DNA of 64,000 nucleotides from a virus, in the IMG/VR virus record IMGVR_UViG_3300006802_000073, positions 32,001 through 96,000 of that record; one strand, given 5' to 3'. Under the pieces are notes generated by a model that saw only the letters and a program-made list of their open reading frames with translations, had not been told where the DNA came from and made no database searches. This document shows positions 11,564 to 15,589 of the stretch, piece after piece. Numbering within the stretch: position 1 is the first letter of the stretch; every line of letters begins with the position of its first letter. The position numbers and the translations under genes were made by a program.

Positions 11564-11977
11564 TCATAGATGAATATGTAGGCGTTTAATATGTGATGAA
11601 GAAACCTTGACAATGATCCATCCGTTGTACCAGAGATCGGGATATTCTAGAACTCCCTGTACAAATTGCTCTCTTGCCTCGAGATAATTTGCCTCACCTT
11701 TAGATTTACATAGATATAAAATTGTACGTCTAAAACTATTTTCACCTAACTTTGCTACATCTGTTTTAAGTTCATCTGATGATGACCAATATTTTTTCCA
11801 ATCAGATTGAACTATGATTTTTTTTCTTTTACCTTTTATTTGTTTATATTTTTTAGTCCAAAATAATTTTTTGCCGATATATTTTTTACCGGTAGGTATA
11901 CAGGTAATAAGATATACAAAACCTATATCATCTGAGTTAGGAGTTGTAAAAACTTGTCCATTATATAGCCAATCCAT
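11564..11977 (-). CDS. GIY-YIG-like conserved T4-like protein
   Basis: GFVYLIT...KYIGKK...SDWKKYWSS...YLEAREQF. Confidence 0.65.
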   Translation of the reverse strand: MDWLYNGQVFTTPNSDDIGFVYLITCIPTGKKYIGKKLFWTKKYKQIKGKRKKIIVQSDWKKYWSSSDELKTDVAKLGENSFRRTILYLCKSKGEANYLEAREQFVQGVLEYPDLWYNGWIIVKVSSSHIKRLHIHL

Positions 11978-11998
11978 AAATAACCTCTTTTGGTTTAT

Positions 11999-12157
11999 TT
12001 ATGAATCATCTTCCTCATTATAATCGAATTCTTGTTCATCTGTTAATTCAGAGCCACAAAAAGCACAATACAGTACTTTATAATAATGATCATCTAGATC
12101 ATGTCTTATTTTAAATACTGCTTCACAATCGAAACATTCGTAACCTTTATTTGCCAA
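11999..12157 (-). CDS. Small zinc-ribbon protein (not in ORF track)
   Basis: TTG start after GGAG; CFDC...CAFCG with acidic tail. Confidence 0.55.
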   Translation of the reverse strand: MANKGYECFDCEAVFKIRHDLDDHYYKVLYCAFCGSELTDEQEFDYNEEDDS

Positions 12158-12166
12158 TATTAACTC

Positions 12167-12361
12167 CTATTTGCAACAATTTCTTTTTTCTTTTATAGAG
12201 GATATTTCTATCCATTTGTTAATTGGACAGCGAACACTTTTCATTAAAACTTTGCCAGGCATAAAGCAACCACATTCTTTGCAAATTTTAAGCATAGGAT
12301 TGAATCTGTCGCATTCCTTGCATATCTCCATACGAATTTGATTATAGGTCATTCCTATCAT
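12167..12361 (-). CDS. Small Cys-rich protein
   Basis: CKEC..CKECGCFM...CP..KW. Confidence 0.6.
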   Translation of the reverse strand: MIGMTYNQIRMEICKECDRFNPMLKICKECGCFMPGKVLMKSVRCPINKWIEISSIKEKRNCCK

Positions 12362-12362
12362 T

Positions 12363-12911
12363 TTATTTAGCTAGAGGATTGTTCAATGCTTCTTGTATTT
12401 TTTTAGCAACATTAGCATTAGATTCTTTAATTGCATTATCTAGTTCTTTGCGAGTTGCTCGAAGTTCTGTTTGAACCTCTTTGACGCTTATATCTGTCTC
12501 TCGTTGGCTTTGTTTAGAGCTACGTTCAACGGAATCGACTACTCCTTCAAGCCTTCGGATATCACTTTTTAAATCATTTTTAATATTGTTTGTGTATCCG
12601 GTTGCTTGATTTACAGTTTCTTTAGTTGCATCCATTTCTTTATTTAACACTTCAAGTTTTTTATTAATTTCTCCAAGATCTGGGGCAACATATTCTGTAA
12701 TAGCTTTTTTCATACCTTGATAATCTTTATATACTTCAAACGCACCATATAAACCACCAAGAACAGTTGAAACAAGAGTACCTGCAATCATGATTTTTGC
12801 AGGTGTAAAAGAATATCCTCCGATAGAAATCACAGTATTTTCGCTCATGTATTTTTCTTTAGCTGCTTCCAGCTCTTCTATTTTTGCATCAACGTCCTTA
12901 CCTTTTTCCAT
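12363..12911 (-). CDS. Membrane-anchored coiled-coil protein
   Basis: Single TM segment, long coiled coil, ends ALNNPLA. Confidence 0.7.
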   Translation of the reverse strand: MEKGKDVDAKIEELEAAKEKYMSENTVISIGGYSFTPAKIMIAGTLVSTVLGGLYGAFEVYKDYQGMKKAITEYVAPDLGEINKKLEVLNKEMDATKETVNQATGYTNNIKNDLKSDIRRLEGVVDSVERSSKQSQRETDISVKEVQTELRATRKELDNAIKESNANVAKKIQEALNNPLAK

Positions 12912-12913
12912 CT

Positions 12914-13324
12914 TTATTTACCTTTGTTTTCAAACTGCATTCTTCTTAAATTTTCTAATTCTTGATTAAGTCTCATCACCTCTATTCGTCGTTTCGTTAA
13001 TTCTAATTGATAAAATAAATTACAATCGAGACGAGTTTTTGGTGCTCCAATTGGTATTATTATTCTACCATAAACACCAACCTGTTTACCTGTATTTGCA
13101 TTTACGTTTGATCCAATAACGGTTGTATTGTTATTATTATTTGCAATACCTAAAACACCAAATTCTATATTGGTACCTGAACCAATTGCCATAGAACATT
13201 CCATATTATCTGCTCTAATATGGTCATTTTGATATTGCCCAGGTGACATAGGTATAGACAAATTTAAAGAATCGACCGCATATGCATTAGCAGATAACAT
13301 AAGAATAACGAAAATTCTTTTCAT
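12914..13324 (-). CDS. Exported protein (signal peptide)
   Basis: MKRIFVILMLSANAYA signal peptide; two Cys; C-terminal coiled coil. Confidence 0.7.
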   Translation of the reverse strand: MKRIFVILMLSANAYAVDSLNLSIPMSPGQYQNDHIRADNMECSMAIGSGTNIEFGVLGIANNNNNTTVIGSNVNANTGKQVGVYGRIIIPIGAPKTRLDCNLFYQLELTKRRIEVMRLNQELENLRRMQFENKGK

Positions 13325-13327
13325 ATT

Positions 13328-13705
13328 TCATCTTTTCCTTGAGCATATTTTAGATGCTATTACAGTCACAGTATTTTCAGTTACCATTATTTTTGATTCA
13401 CTACATATATAAGTAACTTTATCAACATTAGATGAATTCACAAATATCTCAATAGTTTTTCGTCTCAAGTATGGAATATAAATAATTCCACTTGGACTAG
13501 ACATAAAAAGTATCTTATTCCAATTTTTATCGTAAACTGTTATTTCATAATAATTAACATCTTTACGCATATTCAACAATTCCATTTTTGTACTGGATAT
13601 ACCAGATACAAAAGAAAAACTAAATCTAGGATATGTTGGTGTAAATTGATGAGCATGCGCCCACCCACTTAACATAATAAAGAATATCACGACATAACGA
13701 AACAT
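13328..13705 (-). CDS. Exported beta-rich protein, possibly pilus-chaperone-like
   Basis: Signal peptide ending AHA; HQFTPTYP N-terminus; C-terminal Cys pair. Confidence 0.5.
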   Translation of the reverse strand: MFRYVVIFFIMLSGWAHAHQFTPTYPRFSFSFVSGISSTKMELLNMRKDVNYYEITVYDKNWNKILFMSSPSGIIYIPYLRRKTIEIFVNSSNVDKVTYICSESKIMVTENTVTVIASKICSRKR

Positions 13706-13710
13706 TTATA

Positions 13711-14214
13711 TCACAATGCTATACATTCAGCCACAACAACAGCACGATAAGTACCACCTGGGAGTGCTTTTCCTACACCATATGTTGCAGTTGAAGATGA
13801 TTTAAACCATGTTGAACCTGCAAAGGTTAAATCAAATTCAGTTGTATTATTATAAACACGTTTATTGGTATCATATGCAGACATACCAGCTACAGAAACA
13901 CGGCTAACACTCGTATCTCCTACCCAATCAACAGTATCACTTAAAGTTGGAGAAGTAGAAAACGATATTGGAGTGCTGATAACTGCTTTATATGCATTTG
14001 CTGCAAATACATCATACCGAATAACAGGCATAACACCACCATCTGCAGGAGCTGTACTTAATTTATCAATAGTTGGGTTACCATAAATACCCGTTGTATC
14101 TGTTGTTATAATACATTTACTTGCTACAGTTCCAATAATTGGAACCTCAGAAGCAGTAGCAGTAATTGTAAGAGCAATCATTAATCCTACAAAACCTAAA
14201 ATCTTTTTATGCAT
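13711..14214 (-). CDS. Exported pilin/fimbrial-subunit-like protein
   Basis: Signal peptide; IIGTVASKCII N-terminal strand; LPGGTYRAVVVAEC C-terminal strand; Thr/Ser/Gly-rich. Confidence 0.55.
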   Translation of the reverse strand: MHKKILGFVGLMIALTITATASEVPIIGTVASKCIITTDTTGIYGNPTIDKLSTAPADGGVMPVIRYDVFAANAYKAVISTPISFSTSPTLSDTVDWVGDTSVSRVSVAGMSAYDTNKRVYNNTTEFDLTFAGSTWFKSSSTATYGVGKALPGGTYRAVVVAECIAL

Positions 14215-14229
14215 AAAATTCTCCGAGAA

Positions 14230-15108
14230 TTAGTTGTTATTAAAACGTTTATACTGCTCTTCTACCATTTTTTTATGTAAATTTTGTTGTGTTAAGTTTC
14301 CTCTTAACGCTTTAACATTATCTGGAAGTTTTGCATCTTGAAGTCTAACTGCATCTTTGTATGTGCCACCAGGCATACTGACACTATAACTTTCAAATCC
14401 TTTAATATTATTCATAGCAAAAAAGGCATCTGCTTGAGCTACAGCATTTGCCGTTAATAAAGTATTTTGTATTGCTTTATTAGCAATTTGTTCAATTTTC
14501 TTCTTCTTTTCTTCTGCAGCCTTTTTCAATTCTTTTTGTTTCTTTTCTTCTTCAGTTTCTAATTTTGTTTTATTTGCCATTACTTCTTTAATATATTCTT
14601 CTGTAGCAGTATCTGTTGCTATTGAAGGAGTGTCAATTGTTGGTGGAATATAATTTGGACAAGATCTATCTATTACTGGAGTAGCTGCACATGTATCAAT
14701 CTTATAATTATATATAATAACTGGATTTTTTACAGTTCCAAAACCAGTTGTGGCAATTTCACCATCACCCCATGCTTTAAAAGGAATATTGTCAACTGGA
14801 ACAGATTTAGCAATAGTATTTCCAGGAAGACCTGACCAATCATCGGTGCTTCTAAAAACAAACCCCGTCCCTGATGCATTCTTATTTTGTATTGAAACAG
14901 TAAATGCATCCGCTGGATTTTTTGTTACATTATAAGTATATATAATACCGGTTACAGAAAGACCTGTATTTTGCGGTATAACATTCGTCATAGTCCATTG
15001 CTGACCGGTTGCAGCAGCATTTGAACTTTGATTATATGTTGTCTCAGAGTAAGAATAAAAGGAACAAAATGCTAATAAGACCCCCACCCATCCAAGTTTT
15101 TTGTTCAT
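14230..15108 (-). CDS. Exported protein: beta domain plus coiled coil
   Basis: Signal peptide ending SYS; Cys pair; K/E-rich coiled coil. Confidence 0.65.
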   Translation of the reverse strand: MNKKLGWVGVLLAFCSFYSYSETTYNQSSNAAATGQQWTMTNVIPQNTGLSVTGIIYTYNVTKNPADAFTVSIQNKNASGTGFVFRSTDDWSGLPGNTIAKSVPVDNIPFKAWGDGEIATTGFGTVKNPVIIYNYKIDTCAATPVIDRSCPNYIPPTIDTPSIATDTATEEYIKEVMANKTKLETEEEKKQKELKKAAEEKKKKIEQIANKAIQNTLLTANAVAQADAFFAMNNIKGFESYSVSMPGGTYKDAVRLQDAKLPDNVKALRGNLTQQNLHKKMVEEQYKRFNNN

Positions 15109-15589
15109 CGCTCATCCCTTCTAATTTTTTAGTTTCTTGTTTAGGTATTCTTTCTGGATTAGATTGCCATGCAGCTTTTGCTTCAGAACCTATCATACCA
15201 TCATAAGGACAGGGTGTTCCTGCCATAATCATAGCATCAAAAACACGATGATCTTGACAAAGTGTTGACACTGCAGCAACTTTCATTCCCATATCATATA
15301 ATGTTTTTGATAATTTTAATCTTTCACAATTCAAATCTCGAATTGTCATACCACCAGAAAGTCCTAATATTTGAGTTTGAACAGCTCCAGCAACTCCTGT
15401 TGTGCATAAGTCCGAATTAGTATTATTAATTGTTGGACTAATTGCAGATGGAGGAGGAGATTTTAAAGTTGTTACAGAATCAGATTTTACGGTGCTTGTT
15501 GAAGTCGATTCAGTTATAATTGGTTGTGCATAAACAGAGAATGATAAAAAAATAATAAAAAACACCAAAAATGGTAGCTTTTTTTGCAT
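15044..15589 (-). CDS. Exported Cys-containing protein with C-terminal hydrophobic anchor
   Basis: Start moved to MQKKLPFLVFF (GAAGGA RBS); SAISP...DLNCERLKL...GTPCP; hydrophobic C-terminus. Confidence 0.65.
   Translation of the reverse strand: MQKKLPFLVFFIIFLSFSVYAQPIITESTSTSTVKSDSVTTLKSPPPSAISPTINNTNSDLCTTGVAGAVQTQILGLSGGMTIRDLNCERLKLSKTLYDMGMKVAAVSTLCQDHRVFDAMIMAGTPCPYDGMIGSEAKAAWQSNPERIPKQETKKLEGMSDEQKTWMGGGLISILFLLFLL

Follow-up and report, generated by a model that had tools for sequence, protein, structure and literature searches.

We analysed a 64,000-nucleotide stretch of viral DNA, hereafter the window (bases 32001-96000 of the 149 kb IMG/VR virus record IMGVR_UViG_3300006802_000073, completeness ~87%), and focused on a cassette of six genes that directly follows nrdB. 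Our reading, held with slightly more belief than doubt, is that this cassette is an envelope-targeted accessory block composed of two phage modules: a trio (p167, p125 and p136) that would carry out usher-less assembly by strand exchange, and a triad (p181, p292 and p182cc) that would provide its platform. We base this reading on the folds predicted for p167 and p125, on a predicted association of p167 copies through near-invariant residues, and on the recurrence of the block in related loci.

A first-pass annotation of this DNA had described six tightly packed genes right after nrdB, and open reading frames (ORFs) indeed occupy these positions, on the minus strand like every long ORF of the window. 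The p181 start lies 22 nucleotides (nt) past the nrdB stop and has the ribosome-binding site GAAGGA, intergenic gaps inside the block range from 2 to 15 nt, and p181 and p292 overlap by 65 nt. From nrdB onwards, the genes are:

p181, 15044-15589, minus strand: signal peptide, 4-Cys core and C-terminal hydrophobic tail; first triad gene
p292, 14230-15108, minus strand: signal peptide, two-domain protein; second triad gene
p167, 13711-14214, minus strand: signal peptide, predicted pilin-like immunoglobulin (Ig) sandwich; first trio gene
p125, 13328-13705, minus strand: signal peptide, predicted single-domain PapD-like beta sandwich; second trio gene
p136, 12914-13324, minus strand: exported, with Gly-rich beta segments, a Cys pair and a heptad helix; third trio gene
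p182cc, 12363-12911, minus strand: N-in membrane anchor and periplasmic coiled coil; third triad gene

Five of the encoded proteins have N-termini in which a basic n-region leads through a hydrophobic stretch to an AxA-like site, and these features are kept across orthologues while the signal-peptide sequences drift. Calling signal peptides from such features and their conservation, we arrive at the annotated set of five putative Sec-type signal peptides and one membrane-anchored coiled coil. Also borne out were the even Cys counts that the five exported proteins show after their signal peptides (4, 2, 2, 2 and 2 in p181, p292, p167, p125 and p136, with 0 in p182cc; all invariant in alignments) and the GGAG that precedes p167 as its ribosome-binding site. 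The overlap (15044-15108) codes in different frames for the hydrophobic tail of p181 and for the p292 signal peptide, and related loci likewise have these two genes overlapping, by 62-65 nt. Some metagenome proteins (P0208 and P0132) read through as p181-p292 fusions, which may be assembly frameshifts or true fusions. The late promoter motif TATAAATA occurred at chance rate in the window, with no copy upstream of the cassette.

The genome that carries the cassette is, judged from its sequence, a large T4-like phage, and the phage DNA polymerase is 49% identical to gp43 of T4-like cyanophages. The sole sequencing run containing the stretch is a freshwater metagenome (a DNA run), which may be the source sample; no RNA sequencing runs containing it are listed.

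A predicted strand-exchange subunit and a putative half-chaperone

Searching the six proteins against Pfam, NCBIfam and PHROG gave no named family, only weak chance-level matches and four PHROGs of unknown function, and PDB sequence searches with profiles of p167, p125, p181, p292 and p136 yielded nothing significant. The p167 precursor consists of a signal peptide (residues 1-21), an N-terminal extension (residues 22-33, nt 14116-14151) in which hydrophobic residues alternate and the Gly at the centre is conserved, and an all-beta sandwich that runs from Cys34 to Cys164 in an AlphaFold 2 model (predicted local distance difference test, pLDDT, 91). The extension is unstructured in this model, and Cys34 and Cys164 tie the first strand to the last. 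The best PDB rows from Foldseek were CfaB, the PapG pilin domain, FimG/F, Caf1, CsuA/B, CupE and CanA, chaperone-usher pilins and archaeal strand-exchange fibres whose scores are weak (E ~1e-3, TM-score 0.4-0.47). Closest by Z were ligand-binding MSCRAMM Ig domains, which are acceptors of a foreign strand. With Foldseek matches this weak, the fold class is an adhesin- or pilin-type Ig sandwich, unproven as a pilin.

Three mature copies of p167 were predicted to associate, with ipSAE interface scores of 0.56, 0.34 and 0.54 (median 0.54) compared with 0.00 for three unrelated-partner controls; contact agreement across runs was at least 83% and partner pLDDT at least 89. In calibration, the ipSAE mark was reached by 20 of 30 proteins solved as same-chain pairs and by 1 of 23 solved as single chains, counts that hold only roughly for three copies of p167 since the calibration used two copies and the proteins' own alignments. 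The interface sets residues 22-34 of one copy against residues 36-46, 52-54 and 149-163 of the next. Its tightest contacts are made by I26, G28 and V30 (with 42-45, 52-54 and 151-160 of the next copy), and these three residues are near-invariant in orthologues. The alternating pattern at positions -2, -4, -6, -8 and -10 from the first Cys is kept in locus L125, in gp148 of Vibrio phage Bennett and in a bacterial copy, all described below. The three-copy model thus predicts donor-strand-type polymerisation through the N-terminal extension. Of the earlier suggestion that p167 is a chaperone-usher or Csu-type pilin, the Ig sandwich stands together with a predicted N-terminal strand insertion; the model also shows a last strand of its own.

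The neighbouring p125 is modelled as one beta sandwich (AlphaFold 2 pLDDT 87), its mature part of ~107 residues forming a single domain. PapD, FaeE, Caf1M, FimC, DraB and SfaE topped the Foldseek rows; an independent aligner returned SafB (8.9), FimC (8.8), YadV (8.4), FaeE (8.0) and PapD (7.9), interspersed with MSP domains, which belong to the same superfamily; and in a language-model search no named cluster was nearer than PapD_N (score 0.82). Against the Pfam models PapD_N and PapD_C, p125 had no match at E <= 1. The predicted fold is that of a chaperone N-domain (PapD-like, MSP superfamily), so p125 resembles the subunit-binding half of a pilus chaperone. The guess of a chaperone-like protein thus survives as an N-domain fold of the PapD, FimC and SafB kind and not as a full chaperone, there being one domain only. 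Two invariant Cys lie near the C-terminus. By the predicted cleavage site, mature p125 starts at His19 (window 13649-13651), and 16/16 aquatic orthologues have this His with xxTPTYP after it. We considered a copper-binding role for p125 and dropped it: the His is replaced in Bennett gp149 and in the bacterial copy, and fold searching favours PapD-like over CopC-like folds.

The third trio member, p136, has a mature part of ~119 residues. Its N-terminal region includes a strand-like SLNLxLP, a variable loop separates two conserved Gly-rich beta segments, and the protein further has a Cys pair and, at its C-terminus, a heptad helix. Faint hints point to Saf pilin (Pfam, E 0.0096; a SafD-SafA chimera in the PDB, E 0.26). 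The first-pass annotation had seen a shared C...G...C-helix layout in p181 and p136 and proposed that the two form rings. Profile-profile comparison aligned nothing except their signal peptides, so that the shared layout fell away, ring formation found no support and p181 and p136 were rejected as relatives. Kinship between p167 and p136 was likewise rejected, with signal peptides again the only part to align. At the level of predicted folds, the pilin and chaperone guesses are supported.

Two modules, their distribution and the search for a pore

Scanning IMG/VR with p167 recovered 24 loci, and all contigs long enough show the six genes in order with differing flanks; the order was identical in 10/10 related loci checked in full. 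Relatives of p181 occur in at least 589 IMG/VR stretches, from which we surveyed the 80 loci nearest in p181. The full block was present in 54 of these, a triad-only arrangement (p181, a larger p292-like protein and p182cc, no trio) in 13, and shorter combinations, many stopping at the locus edge, in the rest. Gene order is thus conserved across phage metagenomes, with co-occurrence well beyond chance (24 p167 loci; 54/80 p181 loci). What did not hold is the idea of one indivisible six-gene operon: besides the triad-only loci, the trio follows p182cc rather than preceding it in locus L125, and trio-only copies exist. By these arrangements, the cassette is two modules, p167-p125-p136 and p181-p292-p182cc.

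On its own and in the same order, the trio corresponds to gp148-150 of T5-like Thalassavirus Vibrio phages (Bennett and relatives), as seen with our own hidden Markov models (E 5.7e-5 for p167, 4.9e-9 for p125 and 7.4e-13 for p136) and with PHROG matches (E 0.0023, 0.0034 and 2.7e-7). The Bennett trio is flanked by two fibre-like proteins on one side and by a small lipoprotein, a holin and an endolysin on the other. The annotated start of Bennett gp149 (L039:3118-3549) drops the signal peptide: upstream of that start the reading frame stays open for another ~130 nt or so, and this part encodes a typical one. A further copy of the trio sits on a 1.48 Mb contig of a GC-rich alphaproteobacterium (p136 homologue, E 8.5e-15), between CorA and short-chain dehydrogenase genes and therefore not in a prophage.

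The p167 family comprises >700 clusters at 90% identity in a metagenome protein collection, all unnamed. A deep profile search with p167 returned just 114 matches in 1.84 billion representatives and no link to bacterial pilin families, and tblastn against cultured phages found no match. Pattern scanning of cultured and binned prokaryote genomes recovered p167 only on short contigs in metagenome-assembled genomes (MAGs) of unrelated phyla, evidently mis-binned phage DNA. Cassette contigs of this kind (L032-L038, G006) lie in MAGs labelled Bathyarchaeia, Melainabacteria, Aquiluna, Saprospiraceae and Rhodobacteraceae; one MAG has four cassette copies on four contigs, probably through contamination of the bin by phage. 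The genes around the cassette are variable accessory genes, such as a desaturase and a nuclease.

These data also bear on whether p167 polymerises at all. The exported proteins could instead be separate periplasmic binding proteins for superinfection exclusion or receptor masking, like T4 Sp/Imm and T5 Llp, with the p167 self-contact an artefact. The closeness of p167 by Z to strand-accepting, ligand-binding MSCRAMM domains would fit such a role, as would the place of the Bennett trio right after tail-fibre-like genes, the position where T5 keeps its receptor-blocking lipoprotein, and the swapping of the N-domain of p292-like proteins between phages, as in an arms race. We nevertheless give this explanation little credence: the residues that make the predicted self-contact are precisely the near-invariant ones of the N-terminus, its score exceeds that of every control, and the chaperone-like partner is always adjacent to p167.

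If p167 does polymerise, the question becomes where. The annotated absence of an usher was confirmed: at E <= 1, PF00577 matched nothing in the 149 kb record, in Bennett or in the complete genomes of three relatives, whereas an E. coli control was positive. Nor does an usher lie beside the bacterial trio, whose genome has a sub-threshold match only (16.4 bits, ~58 kb away). Bennett gp146 and gp147 were rejected as ushers, as they have no signal peptide and are collagen-like and fibre-like in sequence. CsgG (PF03783) and CsgF (PF10614) at E <= 1 were absent from the record, and we rejected a curli reading on that basis; in related phage records, the three complete genomes among them, no CsgG match rose above the curated cut-off, and one relative (G001) had a sub-threshold match (17.6 bits, E 1.5e-4). 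Library scans detected no secretin-like or beta-barrel family among the six proteins. As the cassette comes without an outer-membrane pore, its product is most likely an array in the periplasm or bound to the envelope, rather than a classical pilus. The first-pass label of a system resembling pilus or fimbrial assembly thus finds support in the predicted subunit and chaperone folds and none as to an exported pilus.

A true surface pilus would need p167 fibres to cross the outer membrane through a p136 oligomer, p292 or a host pore, and could then serve adhesion, aggregation of infected cells or receptor masking. Consistent with it are the predicted pilin-like polymer of p167, the chaperone-like predicted fold of p125, and the Gly-rich beta segments and oligomerising helix of p136. 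Curli cassettes, moreover, occupy the same kind of variable region in ecologically similar phages (PMC7029224, PMC9599517), and with neither CsgG nor CsgF in the record, the cassette could be an alternative fibre module. We consider this pilus unlikely given the lack of an usher in four complete or near-complete phage genomes and beside the bacterial trio, the small size of mature p136 (~119 residues) and the absence of any secretin-like or beta-barrel family from the six proteins.

The membrane-anchored triad and its relatives near lysis genes

In p181, the signal peptide is followed by a Ser/Thr-rich stretch and PPPSA. Residues ~55-145 (nt 15155-15427) then make up a 4-Cys core that is very conserved and contains an invariant Gly/Ala-rich segment, and a hydrophobic tail (residues 166-181, nt 15047-15094) forms the C-terminus. 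More than 800 metagenome clusters of longer proteins match the core at 70-83% identity; roseophages have it too, as do the pelagiphages HTVC115P, HTVC023P and Mosig. In p292, the signal peptide ends in a conserved SYSYS-E/D and leads into an N-domain that is rich in beta structure and has a single Cys loop; beyond a Lys/Glu-rich linker comes a conserved C-terminal domain, which finishes in ..MV..QY. This last domain is common to the larger p292-like proteins of triad-only loci (domain E 1e-17 to 1e-5) and weakly shared with gp46/gp53-like proteins of pelagiphages (hhalign probability 47%, E 2e-4); a protein atlas search with p292 gave nothing usable. The p292-like proteins of triad-only loci span 420-700 residues and carry the Cys-loop motif of p292 in 5-7 tandem copies (L073, L086, L105, L120 and others). 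A long repetitive p292-like protein in triad-only loci, set against a short p292 with a polymerising subunit in six-gene loci, suggests that both may give an elongated element. Downstream of p182cc, triad-only loci encode a conserved 172-amino-acid (aa) protein with a C-terminal membrane segment, followed in several of them by a ~100-aa exported protein, neither with a family match.

p182cc begins with ~38 cytoplasmic residues, then has a hydrophobic segment (~39-60, nt 12732-12797) and a coiled coil of variable length, and ends in a conserved (D/N)NPLA (nt 12366-12380). The same topology and C-terminal motif recur in Mosig_00200, HTVC023P gp48, HTVC115P gp49 and CRP-810 gp51. Cultured triads (HTVC115P, HTVC023P, Mosig and roseophage CRP-810) accordingly consist of a p181-like gene, a further protein and, downstream, an anchored coiled coil ending in (D/N)NPLA. 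The protein after p181 is large, exported and acidic in pelagiphages and 187 aa long in CRP-810. CRP-810 gp51 (L029:5210-5632) is annotated 'lysozyme'; it is an anchored coiled coil ending in NKNPLGR and a p182cc homologue, so this annotation looks wrong. In the window itself, the gene after p182cc has no signal peptide, and the region 3' of the cassette (11564-12361) holds two small ORFs (64 and 52 aa) that are rich in Cys and have CxxC pairs, together with one of 137 aa that, by eye alone, resembles a GIY-YIG homing endonuclease.

Because the triad adjoins lysis genes in cultured phages, a reading without a pilus opens up. The triad would be a new spanin-like complex or a lysis-timing regulator bridging both membranes, to which the trio would add length or strength as an accessory. 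The triad of Mosig comes after a holin (GTA_holin_3TM, 25.8 bits versus a cut-off of 24.8), that of HTVC023P is followed by an M15 peptidase, in MW202481 the p181-like and p292-like genes precede a holin-like gene and a lysozyme, and the Bennett trio lies just upstream of the small lipoprotein, holin and endolysin. In topology, p182cc has the N-terminal anchor and periplasmic coiled coil of an i-spanin, and p181, with its signal peptide, C-terminal membrane tail and invariant Gly/Ala-rich segment, is reminiscent of unimolecular spanins.

Against such a device, the cassette here directly follows nrdB without a T4-type late promoter motif and sits among variable accessory genes (desaturase, nuclease), and the holin families GTA_holin_3TM and DUF7201 were searched for and not found in the record. 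Looking for the lipoprotein partner of a spanin, we found no conserved Cys at the lipobox position in the five signal peptides. Bennett has a separately annotated Rz-like spanin, and the bacterial trio lies outside a prophage. Pfam and PHROG scans of the flanks of triad-only and six-gene loci identified no lysis family. We judge a lysis or exit device quite unlikely for this cassette.

CsgG was not found in the triad-carrying cultured phages Mosig, HTVC023P, HTVC115P and CRP-810, and curli-bearing HTVC008M and Melnitz were absent among the p181 matches. In this small sample, curli and triad cassettes may be alternatives to each other.

Proposed mechanism and relation to known systems

We return to the reading of two envelope-targeted modules that we prefer. 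In our model, p167, p125 and p136 would be exported by Sec and would each acquire one disulfide. By presumed binding, p125 would hold p167 in the periplasm. Copies of p167 would then chain head to tail, the V-I-G-V-S strand before Cys34 of one subunit lying against the first and last strands of the next, and p136 might nucleate, cap or anchor the chain through its strand-like N-terminus and C-terminal coiled coil. The triad would form a platform that ties the fibre, made of two inner-membrane-anchored proteins and one exported two-domain protein: p181 would be held by its C-terminal tail, and p182cc by its N-terminal segment, with a coiled coil of periplasmic length. The product would change the envelope of the infected cell, perhaps to exclude other phages, or to prepare or time envelope breakdown.

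Several points weigh against this model. The cassette proteins match no sequence family. The p167 model already possesses its own C-terminal strand, so that an open groove of chaperone-usher type stays hypothetical. The ipSAE value expresses model confidence, not a measurement, and its calibration used pairs, whereas the prediction used three copies. Conserved positions are only slightly over-represented at the predicted acceptor surface (17/33 versus 38/113, p 0.049). Lastly, the presumed link between triad and trio comes from synteny and nothing else.

A broader proposal, which we put forward tentatively and hold less likely than not, is that aquatic phages of several families and some bacteria share an usher-independent pathway, in which a half-chaperone and a third partner assemble a strand-exchanged Ig-like fibre within the envelope or at its surface. 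Phages of the T4-like and podo types would couple this pathway to the widespread triad at the inner membrane, and in aquatic metagenomes few exported phage domains are as conserved as the 4-Cys core of that triad. It would stand as an alternative to phage curli and would reshape the envelope for exclusion of rivals, capture of neighbouring hosts, or exit.

We found no published description of the cassette, and papers on phage curli cassettes (PMC7029224, PMC9004378, PMC9599517) do not mention the block. It is nevertheless very common (>700 clusters of p167; p181 relatives in at least 589 IMG/VR stretches), with every member annotated hypothetical. Parts of it occur in cultured pelagiphages, roseophages and Vibrio phages, the last of which offer a culturable test system. 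If the model is true, strand-exchange fibre assembly needs neither an usher nor a two-domain chaperone, and lytic phages spend ~3 kb on a structure in the host envelope. Such a structure would be relevant to the means by which abundant aquatic phages govern superinfection, lysis and contact between cells.

Among known systems, spanins (lambda Rz/Rz1, T1 gp11) share with the triad the i-spanin layout of p182cc, the unimolecular-spanin-like end of p181 and the location of relatives in lysis regions. The cassette differs from them in having six genes, no lipoprotein partner, no sequence similarity and, here, a position apart from lysis genes. Bacillus TasA is an usher-independent strand-exchange fibre. 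Similarity of p167 to fibres of this kind is at background level, and the host envelopes of archaeal bundling pili, CanA cannulae and TasA are different; none of these has a PapD-like partner.

Curli (type VIII) cassettes are found in the variable region of pelagimyophages, the OM43 phage Melnitz and HTVC023P-type pelagiphages (PMC7029224, PMC9004378, PMC9599517). Like them, the cassette is a multi-gene exported block, related to fibres, in the variable region of aquatic T4-like and podo-type phages, has moved between phage families and is absent from presumed hosts. Unlike them, it encodes unrelated proteins in a genome without CsgG, CsgF or curlin repeats, and it is predicted to use strand donation in place of amyloid stacking; curli cassettes also encode an outer-membrane pore.

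The closest comparison is with chaperone-usher pili (Fim, Pap, the FGL systems Caf1/Saf and the archaic Csu/CupE). As in these, p167 is a putative Sec-exported Ig-like subunit with an alternating-hydrophobic N-terminal strand and a central Gly, this strand is predicted to bind the next subunit, and the p125 encoded beside it has the predicted fold of the subunit-binding domain of a chaperone. The differences are considerable. The cassette lacks an usher, its chaperone-like protein has one domain instead of two, no protein has a Pfam or PDB sequence match, and the p167 model has its own last strand, disulfide-tied to the first. p136 and the inner-membrane triad have no counterpart in these pili, and the cassette is encoded by lytic-type phages. 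Membership in the chaperone-usher pathway thus fails on the usher and the two-domain chaperone, and the working principle is shared at the level of prediction. With what looks like a pilus subunit and half a chaperone but no export pore, these phages seem to have put a portion of the pilus machinery of bacteria to work in the infected cell's envelope.

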